Origin: Alphaproteobacteria bacterium
GTDB lineage: Bacteria > Pseudomonadota > Alphaproteobacteria > Bin95
Length of the DNA stretch: 64,000 nucleotides
Direction: 5' to 3'
Assembly (NCBI GenBank): GCA_965222315.1
Contig: OZ244951.1
Span: 1,644,346 to 1,708,345, forward strand
The position numbers and the translations under genes were made by a program. Numbering within the stretch: position 1 is the stretch's first letter; each line of letters starts with the position of its first letter. The notes beneath the pieces were generated by a model. The model did no database searches, was not told where the DNA came from, and saw only the letters and a program-made list of their open reading frames with translations. Below, piece after piece: positions 4,821 through 52,382 of the stretch.

Positions 4821-7800
4821 TTACACAGCCCAAACATCCACGTTGACGAACGCCTCCGTGAACCCGCCCTGGCTGTCACTGGCCCAATATTTGAAGGACT
4901 CGCTTCCGGCGAAGCTTAGGGATGGGCGGTAGGTGATCGTGCCGTCGCCATTGTCGAAAACGGTCCCATAGGTCGGCTGGGCGATGCCGTCGATCTCTAG
5001 CGCATCTCCGTCCGCGTCCCAGTCGTTCTGCAGCAGGTCGATCGTCACGTCAGTTTCGATTGATGTAGATGCGGTGTCATCTTGGGCGACGGGAGCTGTA
5101 TTGTTCAGATTAATCGTGCCGGCATATTTCGCGTTTTCATAAGGGGCAAATTGTCCGAGAATGTTATCTAATGTGTCAGATAGTTCGACAATATTACCAG
5201 TCTTAAAGATTTCGCCAGTCCCGCGGTCTGTGTAATAGCTTTCCAATATAAAATAGTTTACGCCCTGAGTGCTATAGTACCCATCTTGCTCCAGTATCTC
5301 AATTACATGGTTCTTCGTTACATCGTATCCGTAGGGTTCGGAACTGTGATCAAAACCATCCGTCCCAGCCGGAATGTTAATCGTGCCAATACTATCAGTC
5401 TTGACCCCGGCAATGGTCACATGTGGATCCGCAGAATCATAGTAAAGTGGTAGATTAAGATCAATTGCAAGATTATTTCCCTGCAATGAACTGCTCACAA
5501 TTAGCTCATCCACGTTCGGGTCGAAATGCTTCATATCTTCATTGACGATGTTCAAGAATGTTGGATTGACAACCTTGTATTGGGTAACATCAACACTCTC
5601 GTTGAAGCTAAAATTTTTGTCTAGATTAATCCCGTTTGCGAAAGAATCGATTTTCGGATCGATCGCAACCATATCGACAGCATTTTGACCGAAAATAATA
5701 CCATCGCCGATCGCGCCCGCCCTTGCCGGTGTCGACTTAGCAATTAAATCCAGATTATCCAGTACATAGTGGCCAGTGTATTCAAAAAAAGCACCGACAT
5801 TTACTTCCCACGCAGTAAAATCGACAATCTTAGAATGAACGTCGAACCCTTGATATGGGTTGTTCTTCACAATATGCAGGCCTTCGTTTGCCGCAAACGT
5901 CTCATTTCCCGAAAAATGCAGGATAGGAGTTTTGTTAGGGTCTATTGGTCCGTTGCCGAGCACTTCTGGAAGATCGAACAGGCTTGGATCGAACCTGATC
6001 TGACCATCCAAGTCATTATCAAGATCTTGATAACGCCCTCTGTGAAAGTACGTGAACCCATGATTTACGCTCGCAGCAACATTGTCTGCTACCTTGATCA
6101 TCCGCCCCTGGAAAAAGAACCCGTCACCGCCTTTTCCTGTATCAAAGTTGGCGCCATCACTTTGGTTTTTCGCCAGGCTCCAGTTTATGCCCTTGGCAAA
6201 AATGGCAATATTGTTCGTCCATGCGCCCGTTTCATTACCTGCTTCGGCGACATAGCCCGCGCCGAACGTGTCGTAGGTGGCGTTGCTGTGCAAAATGGCA
6301 TGAGAGTCATGATGCACAAAACCCCAGCCAGGGGAGCCAAAAACCGCGTTGCCCTCCGCAATAACCGGAGCCATCGGGTCGTCGATGCCGGTTTTGTGCA
6401 GGTGGAAAGAATAGCGCCCTTTAACATTACTGTCTGAGGCGATATTGGAAAACTCGTGCGGGTTCAGGGCGAGCACCGACTTGTCAGTTCGCCCCAATTC
6501 GCTGAACTCGACAAAGCGGACATCCACATCGTCGCTATGCATGAACATCACGTGACCACGGTGGTGGATCTCTGCCGCGCCGCCATTCTCTGACTCGATG
6601 GACACATTGCGGGTATAGTTTGCGACAGACGCTTTCAGGTCCGCACGTGGTGTCTGATGGTCAAACTGAAGGGGTGCATCAAAGAAAACTGTATCGCCAT
6701 TGATATTAGATATCGTCAATATTTCATCTTGCGGCGCCCGATAACTATTTGGGTTGTTTGCCCAAATATAGCCATCATATTGCGTGCCGGTTAGGACAAT
6801 AGTGTCGCCAATCTGCCAATTGTCAGGGACCTCTTCTAACGTAAGCGAGGTTTCCCCCGCCAAGGGATCTACCGCAACCTTCAAGTGCGTGGTTTTTTCC
6901 TGCCCATGCATCTCTACGGTCCCGTGCGAGACAAGACCTCTCGAAATCAGGAGCGGGTCCCAGGCGACATCGATGTCTCCATTGTCGGCGATGACGATTT
7001 CGACTTTAACGTTGCCGGCGACCGGATTGCTCTTCGTGCCGGCTGTGAGTGTGCCGTTTTGATCGACGACAAGCGTATCCACCACTATTTTGGAGTCTGT
7101 AGTGGTGGAGAAGTGCAGTTCTCCGTCAACCCGGACCGTCATCAGGCGGTCATTCGAAATACCATCATAGTCTACTACAACACCATCGGATATCAGGACT
7201 CTGGCGTCATCACCGGGCACGCTATTCCCTGCCCAGGTGGCGGGATCAAACCAGGAACCATTATTGATGGCCGTATGCGTAACGTCTGCGTGTTTAACCA
7301 GATTGAACACCGCCATGTGCTCATCATGCTGTAAGGTTGACGGATCATGGGGGGAGGCTGCGGTCACATTGACAGTCACGGTTGCGGTGCTTGTCCCGCC
7401 GTTTCCGTCGGTGACGGTATAGGTGAAACTGTCGGTTCCTACGAAGCCGGTGTTCGGCGTGTAGGTCAGCGTACCATCCGGGTTTCCGGTAAGATTGCCG
7501 CCGGTCGCAGCACCGTAGGTCAATAAGCTTAGCGCGTCGCCATCGCCATCGATGTCGTTTGCCAGGGGATCGATCGTGACAGGCATATCCTTGTCGGTCG
7601 CCACGAAATCGTCGGCGGTGATGGGTGGATTGTTTACCGCGGCGACATTGACAGTCACGGTTGCGGTGCTTGTCCCACCGTTTCCGTCGGTGACGGTATA
7701 GGCAAAACTGTCGGTTCCTACGAAGCCGGTGTTCGGCGTGTAGGTCAGCGTACCATCTGGGTTTTCGGTAAGATTGCCGCCGGCGGCAGCATCGTAGGTC

Positions 7801-8258
7801 AATAAGCTTAGCGCGTCGCCATCGCCGTCGGTGTCGTTTGCCAGAGGATCGATCGTGACAGGCATATCCTTGCCGGTCGCCACTAAATCGTCGGCGGCGA
7901 CGGGCGGATTGTTTACATTGCCGGTTACATCGATTGTGACGGTGCCTTGGGCTGTATTGCCGTTCACCCAAAAATTTCGATCATTGATTACATACGTAAA
8001 CGTTACGACCCCAACAAAACCTGGGTCCGGGTAGAATGTAATTTTTCCGTTGTTGAATTCTTCAATGTATCCCCCCGTCAAAAAAATAAGATCAGGATTA
8101 TAATTCCGTAATAATTGACCATTAATAGAGTTGATCGTAATCTTATCACCATTCAAATCATAGTCATTATCCAAGAGATCAATAAAGACAGGCTGTCCCT
8201 GGTTAGTGGTCGCAGTATCATCTGTAGCGACTGGTGGGACGAATGGATAGCGCGCCAT
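4821..8258 (-). CDS. Large (1145 aa) surface/secreted protein: cadherin/VCBS-like DxDxDGD repeat domains (3 N-terminal, 1 C-terminal) flanking a G8 domain plus right-handed beta-helix core
   Basis: Repeats carry PVTIDPLANDTDGDGDALSL...GTLTYTPNTGFVGTDSF.YTVTDGNGG. G8-like block WFDPATWAGNSVPGDDARVLISDGVVV...GELHFS...GTLTAG, then GRYSFHLH. GC is visibly below the flanks. No N-terminal signal peptide. Confidence 0.8.
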   Translation of the reverse strand: MARYPFVPPVATDDTATTNQGQPVFIDLLDNDYDLNGDKITINSINGQLLRNYNPDLIFLTGGYIEEFNNGKITFYPDPGFVGVVTFTYVINDRNFWVNGNTAQGTVTIDVTGNVNNPPVAADDLVATGKDMPVTIDPLANDTDGDGDALSLLTYDAAAGGNLTENPDGTLTYTPNTGFVGTDSFAYTVTDGNGGTSTATVTVNVAAVNNPPITADDFVATDKDMPVTIDPLANDIDGDGDALSLLTYGAATGGNLTGNPDGTLTYTPNTGFVGTDSFTYTVTDGNGGTSTATVTVNVTAASPHDPSTLQHDEHMAVFNLVKHADVTHTAINNGSWFDPATWAGNSVPGDDARVLISDGVVVDYDGISNDRLMTVRVDGELHFSTTTDSKIVVDTLVVDQNGTLTAGTKSNPVAGNVKVEIVIADNGDIDVAWDPLLISRGLVSHGTVEMHGQEKTTHLKVAVDPLAGETSLTLEEVPDNWQIGDTIVLTGTQYDGYIWANNPNSYRAPQDEILTISNINGDTVFFDAPLQFDHQTPRADLKASVANYTRNVSIESENGGAAEIHHRGHVMFMHSDDVDVRFVEFSELGRTDKSVLALNPHEFSNIASDSNVKGRYSFHLHKTGIDDPMAPVIAEGNAVFGSPGWGFVHHDSHAILHSNATYDTFGAGYVAEAGNETGAWTNNIAIFAKGINWSLAKNQSDGANFDTGKGGDGFFFQGRMIKVADNVAASVNHGFTYFHRGRYQDLDNDLDGQIRFDPSLFDLPEVLGNGPIDPNKTPILHFSGNETFAANEGLHIVKNNPYQGFDVHSKIVDFTAWEVNVGAFFEYTGHYVLDNLDLIAKSTPARAGAIGDGIIFGQNAVDMVAIDPKIDSFANGINLDKNFSFNESVDVTQYKVVNPTFLNIVNEDMKHFDPNVDELIVSSSLQGNNLAIDLNLPLYYDSADPHVTIAGVKTDSIGTINIPAGTDGFDHSSEPYGYDVTKNHVIEILEQDGYYSTQGVNYFILESYYTDRGTGEIFKTGNIVELSDTLDNILGQFAPYENAKYAGTINLNNTAPVAQDDTASTSIETDVTIDLLQNDWDADGDALEIDGIAQPTYGTVFDNGDGTITYRPSLSFAGSESFKYWASDSQGGFTEAFVNVDVWAV
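7359..7916 (-). repeat. Tandem duplication, 2 x 279 bp (93 codons), inside the large surface-protein gene
   Basis: Residues ~115-207 and ~208-300 are near-identical. DNA blocks starting near 7365 and 7644 match with period 279. Confidence 0.85.
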
Positions 8259-12509: not shown

Positions 12510-12901
12510 TCTGCTCCAATTCAGTGGCTTGGCGAGGTTGGCGCGCATTGACTCGGCTGAAGCGGGCTTGGGTCCTTCCCGGGAGCCGGCCTGGTCGGGG
12601 GGTGCGCGGAGCCCCGGGTTTCCAGAGTTTTCAATAATTTGGGAACAAAATCCCTTCGGCAAAAAGTCTTGGTCATGTTCCCAGGAGAGGTGTAGCTCGG
12701 CGTAGCGCCCTTGATGGCGTCTGCGGCCACCCGTAGCTTTGTAGGACGTCATCGAGGGCGCGATGGTAATCGGGAAATTGTCGGAAGGGTTGGGTTGCTG
12801 AGACCAACTCGAACCGAAGGAAGACCCCGATGTCAACGGCGGTGAGAAAATGTACCGGCGCGGGTTTACCGGAGAGTAAAAACACTCGAAGGATACCCGT
12901 T

Positions 12902-13135
12902 ATGAAGAACCGCCCCTACACCCCATCCTTTTCAGCCGAGCTACGCGAACGCGGCGTTCGGCTTTTCAAGGAACATCGCACCGAATATCCAAGCGATAAT
13001 GCAGCCTACAGGGCGATTGCCCCGAAGCTTGGCTGCTCGCCGGACAGCCTGCGGGTCTGGTGCCAGCGTGCTGAGCGCGATGCCGGTGAGCGCCCTGGCC
13101 TGACCGGCGCAGAGCAAGACCGGATCAAGGCATAG
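12902..13135 (+). pseudogene. IS3-family orfA with premature TAG
   Basis: MKNRPYTPSFSAELRERGVRLFKEHR...GLTGAEQDRIKA then TAG. The paralog at 43687-43965 reads KALEREVRELRQANE through the same position. Confidence 0.75.
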
Positions 13136-13203
13136 GAGTTTGAAGTCCGGGAACTGCGCCAAGCCAATGAGATCTTGAAGAAGGCCAGCGCGTATTTTGC
13201 CCC

Positions 13204-13242
13204 TCCTCTCGGCGAATGCTTGCATTCGCCTGTCGGGCAACG
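13204..13242 (+). repeat. 39-bp hairpin mini-insertion (copy 1)
   Basis: TCCTCTC-GGCGAATGC-tt-GCATTCGCC-TGTCGGGCAACG. Adds 13 in-frame codons between SAYFA and AELDRP at the orfA/orfB junction. Confidence 0.7.
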
Positions 13243-13734
13243 GGCGGAGCTCGACCGCCCGTTCAAGAAATGACGGCGTTCATCAACGAGCATCGGAGCG
13301 TCTTGGGTGTCGGGCCGATCTGCAAAATGCTGCCGATCGCACCATCGACGTATTTTGCTCGCGCCGCGGTTGTCCGAAACCCTGCTCTGGCCTCCGACCG
13401 GGCGAAGAGCGATGCGGCGACCAGCCGGAAGATCCGGCGCATTTTCGACGCCAGTGGGTGCCGCTATGGCGCGCGCAAGGTCTGGCATGCGTTGCGCCGC
13501 GAGGGGCATGACATCGCCCGCTGTATGGTGGAACGGCTGATGAAAGCGGCAGGATTACAGGGCGTTGTGCGTGGCAGGAAAGTCATCACAACCAATCCGG
13601 ACACATTGCTGTCCTGTCCCGGCGACAAGGTCAACCGGGCGTTTGTTGCCCAGGCGCCAAACCGGCTCTGCCCTTACGGCATTTGCACGCAAACGCCTAC
13701 CGGGTAACAGGTCTCGGACTTTACCTACGTTGTG
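13243..13734 (+). pseudogene. IS3-family orfB, 5' half only
   Basis: AELDRPVQEMTAFINEHRSVLGVGPICKML...ARKVWHALRREGHDIARCMVERLMK...APNRL[insert]VSDFTYV. Broken at ~13734 by the IS110-family element. Confidence 0.7.
13671..13709 (+). repeat. 39-bp hairpin mini-insertion (copy 2)
   Basis: CCCTTAC-GGCATTTGC-ac-GCAAACGCC-TACCGGGTAACA, inserted inside the Trp codon of PNRLWVSDFTYV. This copy carries an in-frame TAA. Confidence 0.75.
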
Positions 13735-15075
13735 TGACGTCAGCGCTTGTCGGACAGAATTGAGCGTTTGAGGAGCGGAGATGCGGTCATCGGGCCGAGT
13801 CGCCACAATTGTCGTGGTGATTTGTAACTCAGAGGAGATGACCATGACCTATTACGTAGGGCTTGATGTTTCGGTCGAGAACACAGCTATTTGCGTTATT
13901 GACGCTGCCGGCCACGTCGAAAAAGAACTTTCCGCGCGGAGCGATCCTGATGACCTCGCAACAGCGCTTGATCCGTTTTCTGATGCAATTGGTGCGATCG
14001 GCCTCGAAGCTGGCCCCATGTCAGCGTTCCTGGCAGAGGGCCTAAAGCAGAGGGGGGTGGACAGCGTTCTGATGGAGACACGACGGGTCCATGCCGCGCT
14101 GTCTGCCATTCCGATTAAGACGGACCGGCGGGATGCCCGCGGCATAGCTGAGTTGCTTCGCATGGGGTGGTTTCAGCCGGTTCATTTGAAGACGCCTGCT
14201 GCTCGGGACCTGGGGTTGATGCTGTCGGCGCGTGACATTCTGGGACGGCGCGTCCGGGAACTAGACAATTCGGTTCGAGGGCTTCTCCGAGGGTTTGGCT
14301 TGAAACTTCCCAAAGGAGCCCGAGGCCGGTTTTGCGACCTGGTTTGCACCCTGATCGCAGATAATCTGGTTCTGGAAGCGGCGATCTTACCTCTCTTGTC
14401 AGCACGCGACGCGATGGCAGGCGAGTTTGTTAAATTGGACAAGTTGGTCCGGGATCAGTTTCGCACCGATGAGGTCTGCCGTCGCCTGATGACCATTCCC
14501 GGTGTTGGTGCTGTCATTGCGATGACCTTCCGTGCCGCTATCGACGACCCCAAACGGTTTCGTTCATCGAAGTCGGTGGGCGCCTGTTTTGGCCTCACGC
14601 CAAGACGATACCAATCCGGTGAAACGGACCGGGTCACCTCGATCACCAAGGCCGGAGATGCCAGCGTGAGGGCCGCGCTCTACGAAGCGGAGCATGTGAT
14701 GCTTGTCAGATCCACCCGATGGACACCGCTCAAGGCATGGGCCATGCGCGTCGCCACCAGAAGGGGTGCGAAGCGCGCCAAGATTGCACTCGCAAGGAAG
14801 CTGGCCGTCATCATGCATCGAATGTGGCTGGACAGCACAGAGTTCAGAGCCGCCTGATAGGCGAGGAACACAAACCCTTCCGCAAGGAAGGCGCTCCTGA
14901 AGGGACGTGGTAAGGGAAAAGCCGACAGAAATCCTGGCTTGGAAATCAAAGTCGCAGCGGAGATGGGCTTTCCCGAACCAACGCTAACCGCATCATGTGA
15001 GTGCTAAACGCAGATCACGGACAGAAGCATGCACCTTCAGCCGCCATACCCTTGCAAAACTGGGCCCGATTACAG
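13735..15075 (+). mobile_element. IS110-family element no. 1 (IS1111-like layout); boundaries +/- 5 bp
   Basis: Interrupts IS3 orfB after DFTYV. Its 3' non-coding end shares the blocks CATCATGTG...CACGGACAGAAGCATG...CCCGAT(T/C)ACAG with element no. 2 (reverse complement of 37055-37140). Confidence 0.7.
13838..14857 (+). CDS. IS110-family (DEDD) transposase, intact
   Basis: MTMTYYVGLDVSVENTAICVID...KTDRRDARGIAELLRMGWF...MTIPGVGAVIAMTF...GLTPRRYQSGETD...ITKAGDASVRAALYEA. GAGG lies before the ATG at 13838. Confidence 0.85.
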   Translation: MTMTYYVGLDVSVENTAICVIDAAGHVEKELSARSDPDDLATALDPFSDAIGAIGLEAGPMSAFLAEGLKQRGVDSVLMETRRVHAALSAIPIKTDRRDARGIAELLRMGWFQPVHLKTPAARDLGLMLSARDILGRRVRELDNSVRGLLRGFGLKLPKGARGRFCDLVCTLIADNLVLEAAILPLLSARDAMAGEFVKLDKLVRDQFRTDEVCRRLMTIPGVGAVIAMTFRAAIDDPKRFRSSKSVGACFGLTPRRYQSGETDRVTSITKAGDASVRAALYEAEHVMLVRSTRWTPLKAWAMRVATRRGAKRAKIALARKLAVIMHRMWLDSTEFRAA

Positions 15076-15114
15076 AAGAATTTCTGGTTCATCGAATCCA
15101 TGGTGGAGCGAATA

Positions 15115-15461
15115 TGAACAAGAAACCCGGAACATCGAAAGATGCCGCTGACAAGCTGGTCAGAGGCATCAAGCGGACGACCGGCAAACACTACTCAGCA
15201 GAGGAGAAGATCCGCGTCGTGTTGGCTGGCCTGCGTGGCGAAGAGAGCATCGCCGCCCTGTGCCGGCGCGAGGGTATCGCAGAAAGCCTGTACTACACCT
15301 GGTCGAAGGAGTTCCTGGAAGCTGGCAAGCGTCGCTTGGCCGGTGACACGGCGCGTCAGGCCACGGCGCCGGAGGTCAAAGAATTGCGCTCAGAGGCGGT
15401 GGCCCTGAAGGAAGTCGTTGCCGAGCTGACCTTGGAAAACCGGCTGCTGAAAAAAGTATGA
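15115..15461 (+). CDS. IS3-family orfA (HTH/leucine-zipper protein)
   Basis: MNKKPGTSKDAADKLVRGIKRTTGKHYSAEEKIRVVLAGLRGEESIAALCRREGIAESLYYTWSKEFLEAGKRRL...LTLENRLLKK. Confidence 0.75.
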
Positions 15462-15932
15462 CAGGGGTTGGGGAGGACGATACATGAGATACCCCGCCTC
15501 TGAGAAGCTGGAAATCATCCGCACGGTTGAGGCCTCGCATCTGCCGGTAAAGCGAACGCTGTCGATGATCGGCATCCCCAGCAGCACCTACTATGACTGG
15601 TATGCCCGCTGGGTCGACGGCGGCCCGGAAGCCCTGGCGGATCGTTCTCCGAGGCCAAAGGCGGTCTGGAACCGCATCCCCGACACGGTCCGTTCCGACT
15701 TCGTGGCGTTCGCGCTGGACCATGAGGACCTGACACCCCGGGAACTGCCGTCAAATACACCGATGAGAAGCGATATTTTATCTCGGAATCATCGGCTTAC
15801 CGCATCCTGAAGGCCGAGGATCTGATCACGGCGCCGGCGCATGTGGTGATCCGGGCCGCCGATGAATTCAAGAACAAGACAACCCGTCCCAACGAGCTCT
15901 AGCAAACCGACTTCACCTATCTCAAGGTCATC

Positions 15933-15971
15933 CCCTCTCATGGTTTGCACGCAAACCACTGCCGGGCAACG
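15933..15971 (+). repeat. 39-bp hairpin mini-insertion (copy 3)
   Basis: CCCTCTCAT-GGTTTGC-ac-GCAAACC-ACTGCCGGGCAACG, lying between TDFTYLKVI and GWGWFYL. Confidence 0.75.
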
Positions 15972-16253
15972 GGCTGGGGCTGGTTCTATCTCAGCACGAT
16001 CCTCGACGATTACAGCCGCTACATCATCACATGGAAGCTGTGCACGACGATGAAGACCGAGTATGTCACCGCCACCCTGGAACAGGCGCTGCAGGCGTCA
16101 GGCTGTGACCAGGCAACCCTCATCCATCGCCCGAGGCTACTCAGCGATAACGGATCTTCCTACATCGCCGGTGACCTGGCCAAGTATCACAAGGCCAAGG
16201 GTATGGAACATGTTCGCGGCGCCCCGCATCACCCTCAGACCCAAGGCAAGATC

Positions 16254-16290
16254 GCCTCTCGGCGTTGCACGCAACGCCTGCCGGCCAACG
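16254..16290 (+). repeat. Hairpin mini-insertion (copy 4, 37 bp, shorter stem)
   Basis: GCCTCTC-GGCGTTGC-ac-GCAACGCC-TGCCGGCCAACG, lying between QTQGKI and (E)RWHQTMKN, at the catalytic Glu of the DDE motif. Confidence 0.7.
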
Positions 16291-16626
16291 GAGACGCTGG
16301 CACCAAACCATGAAGAACCGCGTGCTGCTCGAAAATTACTTTTGCCCGGCGACCTTGAACGGCGGATCGGCGCCTTCGTCGAGTACTACAACGACCGCCG
16401 ATACCACGAGAGCCTGGGAAACCTGACACCCGCCGATGTGTATTGCGAACGTGGCGCGCAGATCCTGAAAATGAGAAAGGAGATCAAAACCAAGACCATC
16501 GAAACCCGACGGTTGCAGCACCGAAAAGCAGCCGCCTAAACTGATCCCGAAACCGAACCAGAGCCTCCGTTACGAAAACCTGAGCGCAGTCCGAAAAACT
16601 CTGACGACGGACAAGAAGCAAGGACA

Positions 16627-44104: not shown

Positions 44105-45222
44105 ATGGAACAGCGTGGGTTTTTTAGCCTTTCAGAGCATCTGGAAAAACTGAGTGAGCACTGCGATCCGCTGGAGTGCTCGATGCGACGGTGGACTTCG
44201 AGTATTTCCGCGGCTGGGTGGTCGAGGGCCTTGGCTATGGCGACGGGCGCAAGGGTGGGAGGCCGCCGTTCGATCCGGTGGCGATGTTTAAAGCCCTGAT
44301 CCTGCAAGCGCAGCACAATCTGTCAGACGCCAGGATGGAATTCATGATCAGGGATCGGCTCTCGTGGGTGCGGTTTCTGGGTTTCGACCTGGGCGGTCCG
44401 ACGCCGGACGAGAACACGATCCGGCTGTTTAGCAACAAACTGACCGAGACCGGCACGTTGCGGCGGGTGATGAAGGCCTTAGACTGGCAACTGCAGAAGA
44501 AGGGCTACATCCCCATCGGCGGGCAGATCGTCGATGCCAGCCTGGTACCCGCGCCCAAGCAGCGGAACACCGAGGACGAAAAGGCCCAGATCAAAGCCGG
44601 GAAGTTGGCCAAGGAAATCTGGCCGGACGCGCCGAACAAGGCGGCGCAGAAGGATACGCAAGGCCCCCTCTCGTGGTTTGCGACCAAACCACTGCCGGGC
44701 AACGGATGGACTTTGAAGATCTGCGGCAAGATCCGCTATCGCCCGGACGGCTCACCGTTGCCGCAGAGCGCCCAGCCGGTGTTCGGGTACAAATCTCACA
44801 TCGCCATTGATCGGCGCTATGGCTTCATCCGGGAATGCACTGTGACGTCTGCCGCGGAAGCGGACAGGCGCATGCTTCGGCAACTGGTGACAACGAACAA
44901 TACATCGTCTGAGGTTTGGGCCAACACGGCCTACCGCTCGAAGCAGAACGAAGAATGGCTAGTCTCGCACATGCTGACGAGCCACATCCATCGCCGGAAA
45001 CCGAACGGAAAGCCGATGTCCAAGGCGACCGCACGCGCCAATGCGAAGAAATCTTCCATCCGCGCCTGCATCAAGCATGTCTTTGCCCATCAAAAGATGC
45101 GCTTCGGCCTGTTCATCCGCACCATCGGCCTGTCGCGGGCCGAGGCCAAACTGACATTGGCCAACATCGCCTACAACTTTGACCGCCTCGTCTTCCATGA
45201 GCGCCGTGCTCTAAAGGCATGA
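44105..45222 (+). pseudogene. IS5-family transposase (second type), with N-terminal frameshift and a 39-bp hairpin insertion
   Basis: MEQRGFFSLSEHLEKLSEH..., frameshift near 44170, then LDATVDFEYFRG...PFDPVAMFKALILQAQHNLSD...QIVDASLVPAPKQRN...KDTQG[insert]RWTLK...FGYKSHIAID. Confidence 0.8.
44666..44704 (+). repeat. 39-bp hairpin mini-insertion (copy 5)
   Basis: CCCTCTCGT-GGTTTG-cgac-CAAACC-ACTGCCGGGCAACG. Removal restores KDTQGRWTLK (the D..RWT block of IS5 transposases). Confidence 0.75.
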
Positions 45223-50883: not shown

Positions 50884-51536
50884 CAGGATCTTCCATCCCT
50901 CTCGATACGCATGAGAATTTCGTCGGCGAGCGCCTCGGGCGGCTGATCGCCTTCCCGGTAGACGGAGTCGAAGCCGCCGTCGGGGCGCATCAGGTAGATG
51001 TAGCCGGAATGCGCCATCAGATAGCCGTCGGGCGCGGTTGCGTCCTCGGATCGCTCGTACCAGACGCGGAAATTGCCGGCGGCCTCGGAGATCTGTGCCT
51101 CGGTCCCAGTGAGGCCGATCAGCCGCGAATGGAACGCGGCTACGTACTCCGCCATAACGTCGACGGTGTCGCGCGCCGGATCCACGGTGATGAAGATTGG
51201 CGCAACCCGGTCAGCTTCAGGCCCGAGGATGTCCATCACGCTGGCCATGTAGGCGAGTGTGGTCGGGCAGATGTCGGGACAGAATGTAAAACCGAAGAAC
51301 ACCAGTTGCCACCGCCCGTCGTAAGCATCGGGCGTCACCGAGCGCCCTGTATGATCGGTCAGGGTATAGGCGTTGACAATCTCGGCCTTGCCCGTCACGC
51401 GGGGCGTCGGCAGGTCGGAGGGGGTGAGGGCGCGCCAGAGAACGGCGCCGCCGAAAGCCAAGGCGGATCCGGCAACGGCCACCCAGAGAAGGCGCCGGAT
51501 GCGTCGCAAGCCATTGGCATTGGAAGTGGCGTTCAT
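50883..51536 (-). CDS. SCO1/SenC-family copper chaperone
   Basis: FFGFTFCPDICPTTL and LMAHSGYIYLM. Start set at MNATSNANG (51536). The upstream ORF extension is rejected. Confidence 0.85.
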   Translation of the reverse strand: MNATSNANGLRRIRRLLWVAVAGSALAFGGAVLWRALTPSDLPTPRVTGKAEIVNAYTLTDHTGRSVTPDAYDGRWQLVFFGFTFCPDICPTTLAYMASVMDILGPEADRVAPIFITVDPARDTVDVMAEYVAAFHSRLIGLTGTEAQISEAAGNFRVWYERSEDATAPDGYLMAHSGYIYLMRPDGGFDSVYREGDQPPEALADEILMRIERDGRS

Positions 51537-51595
51537 CGGATCAGGTCTTTCAGGAAGGTCGCCCGGGCGGCGGGTGCAGCCCGGGCGTCTTGATG

Positions 51596-51838
51596 TCAGC
51601 CGCCCTGTGGCGCTGGGGTCTTGCCTTGCCCGGCAGGGGGCGTCGCACTGTCGGGGTGGCCGGGCTGATGATGCGCCATCTGCTGCATCATCTCGGTGCA
51701 GTGCTCCATCATCGGGCCCATGGCCTGCATCATCTGCATCATGCCCTGCATCTGTCCCTCGGGCATGGCGGGGGCGTCGTTCTCCGCCAGCGCGGCGGAG
51801 GTGGCGAGCCCGAGGCCAAGAACGGCGGCCGTTGCCAC
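51596..51838 (-). pseudogene. Duplicate of the Met/His-rich periplasmic protein gene lacking its native N-terminus
   Basis: Identical to 52122-52357, but the N-terminus MKTIQKYAM is replaced at the duplication junction. Confidence 0.7.
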
Positions 51839-52062
51839 CGCGCGTCGTAAGCATCGGGCGTCACCGAGCGCCCTGTATGATTGGTCAGGGTATAGGCGTT
51901 GACAATCTCGGCCTTGCCCGTCACGCGGGGCGTCGGCAGGTCGGAGGGGGTGAGGGCGCGCCAGAGAACGGCGCCGCCGAAAGCCAAGGCGGATCCGGCA
52001 ACGGCCACCCAGAGAAGGCGCCGGATGCGTCGCAAGCCATTGGCATTGGAAGTGGCGTTCAT
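51832..52062 (-). pseudogene. Duplicated 5' fragment of the SCO gene
   Basis: MNATSNANGLRRIRRLLWVAVAGSALAFGG...TPDAYD(G/A)RWQ. It then runs into the junction. Confidence 0.8.
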
Positions 52063-52121
52063 CGGATCAGGTCTTTCAGGAAGGTCGCCCGGGCGGCGGG
52101 TGCAGCCCGGGCGTCTTGATG

Positions 52122-52382
52122 TCAGCCGCCCTGTGGCGCTGGGGTCTTGCCTTGCCCGGCAGGGGGCGTCGCACTGTCGGGGTGGCCGGGCTGATGATGC
52201 GCCATCTGCTGCATCATCTCGGTGCAGTGCTCCATCATCGGGCCCATGGCCTGCATCATCTGCATCATGCCCTGCATCTGTCCCTCGGGCATGGCGGGGG
52301 CGTCGTTCTCCGCCAGCGCGGCGGAGGTGGCGAGCCCGAGGCCAAGAACGGCGGCCATTGCGTATTTCTGGATCGTCTTCAT
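52122..52382 (-). CDS. Small exported Met/His-rich protein (candidate Cu(I) binder)
   Basis: Signal peptide, then APAMPEGQMQGMMQMMQAMGPMMEHCTEMMQQMAHHQPGH. Confidence 0.6.
   Translation of the reverse strand: MKTIQKYAMAAVLGLGLATSAALAENDAPAMPEGQMQGMMQMMQAMGPMMEHCTEMMQQMAHHQPGHPDSATPPAGQGKTPAPQGG

Follow-up and report, generated by a model that had tools for sequence, protein, structure and literature searches.

Very small hairpin insertions concentrated in the transposase genes of bacterial insertion sequences

What are the short hairpin sequences that interrupt the transposase genes of some bacterial insertion sequences (IS), often beside the codons of catalytic residues, and how would they have come to be there? 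The question is raised by a stretch of 64,000 nt from an Alphaproteobacteria bacterium (GTDB lineage Bacteria; Pseudomonadota; Alphaproteobacteria; Bin95; GenBank assembly GCA_965222315.1, contig OZ244951.1, positions 1,644,346 to 1,708,345 of the forward strand), which as a whole we refer to as the window. An original prediction, made from the letters of this DNA, described four copies of one short hairpin element inside two decayed IS3-family elements, here called IS3a and IS3b. All four are present as predicted in position and sequence, copies 1 to 3 being 39 nt and copy 4 being 37 nt long, and a repeat search added a fifth that had been missed earlier, at 44666-44704 on the + strand (CCCTCTCGTGGTTTGCGACCAAACCACTGCCGGGCAACG), within an IS5-family transposase open reading frame (ORF) at 44176-45222. 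They belong to a real family of short hairpin insertions, with about 130 copies across which the predicted structure holds. We propose, with a probability of roughly 0.6, that the family consists of very small (37-43 nt), non-autonomous insertion elements resembling repetitive extragenic palindromes (REPs), which would be mobilised in trans and recognised by their hairpin and flanks. The copies in the window are the following.

Copy 1: 13204..13242, + strand, 39 nt, TCCTCTC-GGCGAATGC-tt-GCATTCGCC-TGTCGGGCAACG, in IS3a
Copy 2: 13671..13709, + strand, 39 nt, CCCTTAC-GGCATTTGC-ac-GCAAACGCC-TACCGGGTAACA, in orfB of IS3a
Copy 3: 15933..15971, + strand, 39 nt, in orfB of IS3b, at the presumed beta1-beta2 turn (TDFTYLKVI|GWGWFYL)
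Copy 4: 16254..16290, + strand, 37 nt with an 8-bp stem, in IS3b, directly before the catalytic Glu (QTQGKI|ERW)
Copy 5: 44666..44704, + strand, 39 nt, in frame in the IS5-family transposase gene (KDTQG|PLSWFATKPLPGN|GWTLK)

Chance does not account for these copies. A relaxed scanner, which allowed at most 3 mismatches in the 3' flank and 2 in the 5' flank and required 5 bp or more of perfect stem between them, found four copies in the window (copy 2 is too degraded) against 0-1 per Markov shuffle (mean ~0.1 over 30 shuffles). Four of the five give the expected hairpin in predicted folding of single-stranded DNA (ssDNA), at -6 to -8.4 kcal/mol, the lowest value being that of copy 1 (z-score -2.5); copy 2 has a stem mismatch, and its predicted folding is no better than that of shuffles. 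All five lie on the + strand, sense to the host gene and free of stop codons, and all five are in IS DNA, which by rough estimate makes up a quarter of the window.

Comparison with empty homologous sites shows that the sequences are insertions with exact ends. An IS3 of Roseovarius sp. THAF9, whose transposase is annotated as intact and which is 81% identical in nucleotides to IS3b, has a 39-nt gap exactly at copy 3, the empty target reading GTCATC^GGCTGG, and a 37-38-nt gap at the site of copy 4. A homologue in locus L075 has a 39-nt gap opposite copy 1 (target TGCCCC^GGCGGA), and in the same locus the copy 2 site is uninterrupted (ADRPNKLWVSDFTYV); it reads DRPNKLWVSDFTYV, again uninterrupted, in the L075 and L010 homologues. 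For copy 5, about 110 of the 120 listed IS5 homologue clusters (the best of 6625 at E<=1e-30) are 359 aa long; the peptide is absent from the four aligned homologues P0003, P0004, P0016 and P0050, which read KDTQAR-WTLK, and 13 extra residues are found at this site in the window protein and in P0002 (372 aa). Most homologues, then, are without the insert, as had been expected of reference IS. Throughout the eleven empty-site comparisons the inserted block is N-CCTCTC...CAACG and no target-site duplication is found. Nor do the alignments and these comparisons give any terminal inverted repeats, since the termini CCCTCTC and CAACG are not inverted repeats; on both counts the prediction was right.

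How large is the family, and what do its members share? An exact pattern scan (CCTCTC-N15-23-CTGYCGGSCAACGG) of a collection with one genome per species returned, among the matches listed, more than 119 loci. Once chance hits in Actinomycetota and in ilvD-like genes were removed, 79 strict copies were left, mostly in Roseobacteraceae and Paracoccaceae, and a relaxed re-scan of the same 815 kb of loci recovered 53 additional copies where about 1 was expected. This brings the family to about 130 copies, mostly from Rhodobacterales, 124 of which collapse to 109 distinct sites; among marine members of this order the element is widespread. The element is present in 66 plasmids of PLSDB, all of Rhodobacterales except for two Shinella records. 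A phage origin was rejected because 2.9 million viral contigs yielded a single true copy, which itself lies in an IS5/IS427 transposase gene.

Each element consists of a constant 5' flank, N-CCTCTC ((C)CCTCTC), a variable hairpin of 7-11 bp and a constant 3' flank, CTGCCGGGCAACG. Since MAFFT did not place columns consistently between length classes, copies were sought with a flank-plus-hairpin scanner, judged against a shuffle null, in place of a covariance model. In the 26 gap-free 39-nt copies, which have a 9-bp stem, 93.6% of cells are paired, compared with 71.6% in shuffles and 26-40% for slid partners, and double changes occur in 7 of the 9 stem pairs; the stems are thus compensatory, as the original prediction held. 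G-U pairs occupy 1 cell in 234, a near-absence more in keeping with pairing in DNA, or on both strands, than with an RNA helix. The 41-nt and 43-nt subfamilies have in common a bulged A after the third base pair and differ in stem sequence. Two diverged sub-lineages were also recognised, CCTTAC...TACCGGGTAACA and CCTGAC...TGACGGCCAACAG; copy 2 is either a degraded copy or a member of the former, and similar CCTTAC-type copies occur in L010, L101 and L108. Lengths run from 37 to 43 nt, with 28 copies of 39 nt, 20 of 41, 11 of 43, 9 each of 37 and 40, 4 of 38 and 2 of 42. Odd lengths predominate because stems change by whole base pairs, and the 13-codon size is therefore not a family rule: most lengths are not multiples of 3, and in-frame insertion of 39 nt does not stand as a property of the family.

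We found no earlier description of this family in the literature searched, although in its behaviour it resembles REPs and palindrome-associated transposable elements (PATEs); full-text searches by sequence and by concept returned general REP papers and papers on the targeting of REPs by IS110-family elements, none of which describes the element. No Rfam family matches it either. The only significant Rfam hit in the region is ALIL, and the only other hit at E<=10 is sR39 (E=6.7), outside the copies.

The distribution of the copies is their most unusual feature. About 90% are in transposase genes and about 10% are intergenic (~100 of the 109 unique sites are in IS), so that the strong IS enrichment proposed at the outset holds for the sampled loci. 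Roughly ten sites are intergenic, in ordinary spacers that separate housekeeping genes, and none of the ~109 distinct sites is inside an ordinary gene. Hosts were identified by a junction test, in which the element was removed ('healed') and Pfam was run on the ORFs spanning the junction. For copies in the sense orientation this gave rve (17 members), rve_3, HTH_21, DDE_Tnp_1, DUF4096, IS66, Mu-transposase C-terminal, IstB, DUF772, Transposase_mut and DDE_3, with one ornithine cyclodeaminase (OCD) gene end as the sole exception; for antisense copies it gave transposase families only, bar one weak Xre hit. The hosts belong to at least eight IS families: IS3, IS481, IS21, IS5/IS427, IS66, IS256, IS630 and IS1182-like. 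By tblastx, the DNA flanking 67 of the 79 strict and 48 of the 53 relaxed copies has homologues flanking the element in other species, which indicates repeated, mobile DNA, and several of the copies without such homologues are in IS256 or IS66 elements recognised by eye.

Individual loci display the same habit. In L010, from a Phaeovulum metagenome-assembled genome (MAG), a decayed IS3 at 1-1260 has 8 copies or more, of both orientations, packed into 1.2 kb, and the next 6.8 kb have none; one of these copies occupies the frameshift-window site of copy 1 with a different stem. Plasmid pDSHI04 of Dinoroseobacter shibae has two antisense copies in an IS1248-like gene, and uninserted Paracoccus relatives are 82 nt shorter. 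For nearly all matches in PLSDB the gene entry is 'none'; the PLSDB gene table leaves out pseudogenes, and these entries are consistent with hosts that are disrupted transposase genes. The element looks like a parasite of parasites, almost confined to the transposase genes of other mobile elements.

Within those genes the copies are not evenly spread. As judged by eye, the first catalytic Asp (D1) or the catalytic Glu is no more than 8 codons away for 12 of the 21 copies in IS3-family hosts (~7 of 14 distinct sites), and the proximity to catalytic motifs first noticed in the window thus extends to the IS3 copies of the family; copy 2, for instance, lies 4 codons ahead of D1 (PNRL|WVSDFTYV). 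Only 0-15% of YCGRY motifs fall in the same D1 and Glu windows of two reference IS3 genes. Hosts of the IS481, IS5 and IS427 groups have the same tendency, with insertion points at HI|D, LT|DNG, MI|D, GYDA|G and HPW|TNGQVER. Moreover, the same codon (+/-1 nt) has been hit by different subfamilies in diverged IS, as in the pairs copy 4/L042, copy 2/L056 and copy 1/L010. The clustered positions are, we assume, the linker before beta1, the beta1-beta2 turn and the loop before the Glu-bearing helix in the RNase-H fold of DDE enzymes. The pattern fits real targeting or survival at permissive loops alike.

Insertion occurs in both orientations at a short target. Orientation was assigned by a codon-usage classifier that reproduced the loci annotated by eye, some of its margins being small. 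It gives a sense:antisense ratio of 57:42 at margin 4 and 48:28 at margin 8 (~1.4-1.7 to 1), and Pfam counts suggest about 2:1; the all-sense orientation first reported is a feature of the window alone. The target is (C)C^GA(T/C)G (n=125), with G at +1 in 117 of 125 cases (94%) and C at -1 in 90 of 125 (72%). The remaining preferences are C at -2 (53%), A (60%) or G (26%) at +2, T (46%) or C (30%) at +3 and G at +4 (50%). This motif carries an estimated 4 bits of information and is often ATC^GAY or ATC^GAR, an Ile-Asp or Ile-Glu codon pair in GC-rich coding DNA. The commonest stem, GGC GAT TGC, contains the target motif, and three nested insertions, in either orientation, are exactly there, at GGC^GAT (L116 168-210, L216 2487-2567 and L217 7134-7215); two of them belong to the CCTGAC...TGACGGCCAACAG lineage. 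The idea that the stem is copied from, or anneals to, its own target was rejected, as the arms match their targets at 2.83 of 9 positions and permuted targets at 2.84.

The insert can also be read through, and it appears to travel with its host. A Pseudosulfitobacter IS3 (L123 2490-2545, plasmid p4) contains a member of the 41-nt subfamily and, 3 nt downstream of it, a single additional base; together these 42 nt leave a 351-aa ORF open (DADFC-PSRQIASQSPAGQR-CEALNEA); the Paracoccus homologue is without the insert, and the extra base looks like a compensatory repair of the frame. This IS with its insert is present as two 100% identical copies on one plasmid and as a 98.3% copy on another plasmid type. 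Similarly, the IS5 allele of L121 (P0002) has a full-length 372-aa ORF with an insert at the same site as in the window. Synonymous divergence (dS) between the window and L121 alleles is 0.73, the ratio of nonsynonymous to synonymous divergence (dN/dS) is 0.09, and their inserts differ at 4 of 39 nt. An uninserted homologue, P0003, lies on the same contig as the window; P0003 and P0002 are 93.3% identical and P0001 and P0002 86.5%, so presence of the insert does not follow the protein tree. The small distance between the inserts at such a dS, together with this off-tree distribution, indicates that the insert is younger than the divergence of its hosts, and implies that it was re-inserted at a hot spot, spread by short-patch conversion or was lost precisely. 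A further insertion, at WP|DN in IS3 of Marivita, Octadecabacter and Yoonia, has one stem with differing loops. PLSDB contained no pair of near-identical IS with and without an insert, the closest uninserted relatives being 86-92% identical. Because some carrier IS are open or multicopy and dN/dS for the two IS5 alleles is 0.09, these data show, if indirectly, that the insert is read through as 13-14 extra residues, is sometimes tolerated, and is carried along by the host IS. A purely IS-disabling role, one of the possibilities put forward originally, does not agree with carriers that are open, multicopy or under purifying selection.

The hosts in the window have fared differently. Their features are the following.

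IS3a: 12851..13730 (approximate), + strand, decayed IS3-family element; homologues are annotated as IS3 / ISAli4 family
ALIL frameshift-stimulating pseudoknot of IS3a: 13227..13344, + strand, RF01497, 86 bits, E=1.5e-20
IS3b: 15053..16616 (approximate), + strand, decayed IS3-family element carrying copies 3 and 4
IS5-family transposase gene: 44105..45222, + strand, frameshifted near its 5' end but with the rest of the frame, insert included, open
IS110-family element: 13731..15045 (boundaries approximate), + strand, transposase gene at 13781-14857, inserted in the IS3 DxTY motif ~22 nt after copy 2

In IS3a the orfA frame contains a stop codon and the IS110-family element cuts the copy short, and IS3b has one stop and at least 3 one-base indels; because both carry these other lesions, they are dead regardless of the copies. 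The copies in the window mark old, decaying IS3 and IS5 copies. Copies 2-4 lie next to catalytic residues (Asp and Glu) in the two IS3 hosts. Copy 1 sits between a putative slippery TTTTG and the ALIL pseudoknot of IS3a, and the additional spacing of ~39 nt should abolish -1 frameshifting. The pseudoknot (RF01497) is itself intact, and the 3' flank of copy 1 is aligned with roughly the first 16 positions of its model.

What, then, moves the element? We propose that an enzyme acting in trans would recognise the hairpin plus its flanks and mobilise the element, most likely as ssDNA in the manner of REPs and their REP-associated tyrosine transposases (RAYTs) or of IS200/IS605. A circular or tandem form would join the ends as ...GGGCAACG|CCCTCTC.... 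Mobilisation in trans is the most economical reading of the exact ends, the short and roughly palindromic target, insertion in either orientation, a hairpin kept by selection between fixed, asymmetric flanks, and the nesting. The bias toward IS would come from a mixture of preferential insertion into IS DNA or its intermediates, tolerance or neutrality, and hitch-hiking.

Several points weigh against this proposal. A mobilising enzyme was not found, no HUH or Y1 family being among the best 25 of 54 Pfam families in the window or the best 25 of 45 at ten intergenic loci. Strand pairs within loci number 48 on the same and 42 on opposite strands, which gives no support to a simple lagging-strand rule. 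A target of ~4 bits cannot explain either the IS bias or the repeated use of one codon (+/-1 nt) in diverged IS, and a collection with one genome per species is weighted toward alleles spreading along with IS, so that part of the bias may be ascertainment. The element has one hairpin where IS200/IS605 derivatives have two. Finally, classified REPs bear a conserved GTAG or CGTC tetranucleotide at one end (PMC3733652), and alignments of the element contain neither tag in its flanks, CCCTCTC and CTGCCGGGCAACG, or, on the other strand, CGTTGCCCGGCAG...GAGAGGG.

Known systems nevertheless offer partial parallels. Like REPs and REPINs, which depend on RAYT enzymes of the HUH Y1 type, encoded by a cognate gene that REPs usually flank, the element is non-autonomous and combines an imperfect palindrome of 20-40 nt with a conserved flank, a covarying stem and occasional nesting, and REPs inside ORFs are known (PMC3733652). 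It differs in occurring as singlets, few per locus, rather than as inverted doublets, in its apparently low copy number per genome, and in lying ~90% within IS transposase genes, whereas REPs are predominantly extragenic and of high copy number. PATEs of the IS200/IS605 type, which move by ssDNA 'peel-and-paste' through a circular ssDNA intermediate made by a Y1 HUH transposase, in an orientation tied to the lagging-strand template, are similar in having no target duplication or terminal inverted repeats, a hairpin with short fixed flanks, and a short target abutting one end, the counterpart of (C)C^GA(T/C)G. They have separate left-end and right-end hairpins, however, whereas the element has a single central one, its conserved target is mostly 3' of the insertion point, and it has no strand bias within loci. 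PATEs are also several-fold larger than 37-43 nt.

In concept the nearest analogues are two other groups of palindromic repeats. Rickettsia palindromic elements (RPEs) are selfish DNA tolerated in coding genes and translated as extra residues; they are ~100-150 nt long, are kept in frame and occupy many kinds of host gene, whereas the element is 37-43 nt, is often out of frame and is seen in no ordinary gene. The small dispersed repeats (SDRs) of cyanobacteria are reportedly 21-27 nt long, palindromic, mobile and nesting in each other and in other repeats, as Elhai et al. (cited in PMC3116915) are said to have described in 2008. They share with the element very small size, palindromy and nesting, differ from it in sequence family and phylum, and are not known to be confined to transposase genes. 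Miniature inverted-repeat transposable elements (MITEs) such as Correia/NEMIS, ERIC and Nezha are likewise small, non-autonomous and sometimes inserted in frame, but have terminal inverted repeats matching a parent IS and target duplications, and the element has neither. Two recombination sites were considered and rejected: GGGCAAC near the 3' end recalls an integron attC (RYYYAAC...GTTRRRY), without the complementary GTT box at the other end, and the flanks do not fit a Xer-like site. The stretch CCTG-CCGGGC (e.g. window 15955-15966) is, we presume, similar to the nic of a P-type oriT (RP4 ATCCTG^CCCGGC); the junctions of the element are elsewhere.

A different account would have the IS bias arise by active delivery. 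That the element is a true hyperparasite of IS, or part of a host anti-transposon function, delivered preferentially into IS DNA with hot spots at DDE catalytic loops, is a possibility that we consider less likely than not, although its chance is substantial; the fuller version, in which a dedicated system (a hyperparasite with targeting of its own, or a host function against transposons) directs the hairpin into IS and prefers sites beside catalytic motifs, appears to us somewhat more doubtful still. Delivery of this kind is suggested by the concentration of unique sites in IS (~100/109), by L010, where a single IS3 of 1.2 kb has 8 or more copies and the adjoining 6.8 kb has 0, by the excess at D1 and Glu (12/21 IS3 copies within 8 codons vs 0-15% of YCGRY motifs), and by the same codon (+/-1 nt) being reached by different subfamilies in diverged IS. 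The IS5 alleles point the same way, with inserts 4/39 nt apart at a dS of 0.73 and present off the protein tree, as does IS3b, with 2 inserts against ~4 small disabling lesions. Such an element could recognise IS transposition or replication intermediates, or some other IS-specific feature; to our knowledge, a recognition step of this kind has not been described for any mobile element. Against this account, the eight IS families have no recognisable common sequence beyond the ~4-bit motif, about 10 copies are in ordinary intergenic DNA, and several carriers remain functional, which means that an insertion does not disable its host reliably. The hot spots fall on presumed surface loops of the RNase-H fold, a pattern that selection for tolerated insertions would also be expected to produce, and candidate machinery was not found.

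The consequences differ with the origin of the bias. Should the bias be mechanistic, no smaller mobile element with a preference for other mobile elements would be known, and this one could be a natural brake on IS in a major marine bacterial group, and how the IS DNA of eight unrelated families is recognised as a class would become a concrete question. If the hyperparasite account is true, transposase genes would be progressively peppered and silenced, or would come to bear insertions of 13-14 residues. If instead tolerance plus hitch-hiking is responsible, the copies would provide a natural map of where DDE transposases tolerate insertion and a marker of IS lineages, and would account for many 'pseudogenised' transposases in the annotations of Rhodobacterales plasmids.

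Could the copies be what is left of something larger? They might be remnants or deletion derivatives of a hairpin-ended transposon (e.g. a MITE of an unknown IS), or footprints of its excision, an origin that we regard as improbable. The stem arms can be read as sub-terminal inverted repeats of 7-11 bp inside fixed ends, and the copies form a discrete size class. Yet widening the spacer from 15-23 to 30-60 nt left 7 genome hits where the narrower range had more than 119; two of the 7 are nested copies, and the rest come from outside Rhodobacterales. A solo 3' end, unaccompanied by a 5' flank, was nowhere seen in the 815 kb of loci. With intermediate lengths essentially absent and no solo ends, the suggestion of excision scars is not supported. 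Target duplication is absent, and footprints would not keep covarying stems across ~130 copies.

Slightly less probable again is an origin in a few primary insertions followed by homologous or homeologous recombination (gene conversion) among IS, in which correction of quasi-palindromes would mimic compensation. Conversion would explain why the same insert is found in IS5 alleles that are not each other's closest relatives and why it is younger than the divergence of its hosts, and recombination would account for the exact ends and the restriction to IS. It cannot carry an element between unrelated IS families or to intergenic sites, however; the 109 sites are distinct in sequence, unrelated stems occupy the same site in diverged IS3 (copy 2/L056, copy 4/L042), and the nested copies at GGC^GAT within other copies are true insertions. 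Least probable of all is a functional RNA or regulatory module selected in transposase mRNAs (for example an attenuator of translation, or a segment cut out of the message), for which one might cite the five sense, stop-free copies in the window and the place of copy 1 in a frameshift window, but which is contradicted by both orientations being common (57:42, or 48:28 when stricter), by G-U pairs being almost absent, by lengths that are mostly not multiples of 3, by the frame-restoring extra base beside the 41-nt copy, relevant only if the insert is translated, and by the absence of an Rfam match.

IS110-family elements adjoin copies in the window and in L056, L007, L051 and L066. In L007 (2958-3000), as in L051 and L066, the three being from three genera, a 43-nt copy lies ~40-60 nt past the stop codon of an IS110-family transposase; this is the region that, in IS1111-type elements, we take to encode the bridge RNA. 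In L056 (a Leisingera MAG, 1060-1330) and in the window, an IS110-family element begins ~17-22 nt downstream of a copy, in the IS3 DxTY motif, and the two transposases are 42% identical. These elements target either the 3' flank of the mini-element, as others target REPs, or the IS3 DxTY motif. The arrangement parallels the use of REPs as landing sites by the IS110/IS1111-family elements IS621 and ISPpu9 (PMC11208160, PMC12288879). IS110 was rejected as the mobiliser of the mini-element, as the two junctions have no shared core dinucleotide and the IS110-family elements of the window and L056 may target IS3 DxTY.

A different hairpin insertion, ...GAAAACAGTCCGGCGGACTGTTTTC..., occurs in L095 (~7868-7925, reverse strand) at HPW|NGGQVER, in an IS481-family gene that also has three copies of the main family; it may represent a second, unrelated family of mini-insertions with the same habit.

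In the window, the mini-element was not found in the located copies of IS110-family (three genes), IS21, IS256 and IS427-like elements; the IS there comprise IS110 (three), IS256 (two), IS5 (two), IS21 and IS66. As a whole the window forms an island of metal resistance, encoding four MerR regulators, two P-type ATPases, SCO1/SenC and PCuAC. Its source is probably a marine alphaproteobacterium, as its metal ATPase is 77-80% identical to ATPases of many Rhodobacterales. The window also contains a 300-nt direct repeat, 99% identical with a spacing of 526 nt, at 51305-52130, and a 279-nt tandem repeat (94%) at 7360-7916, within a large Big_9/cadherin-like gene.

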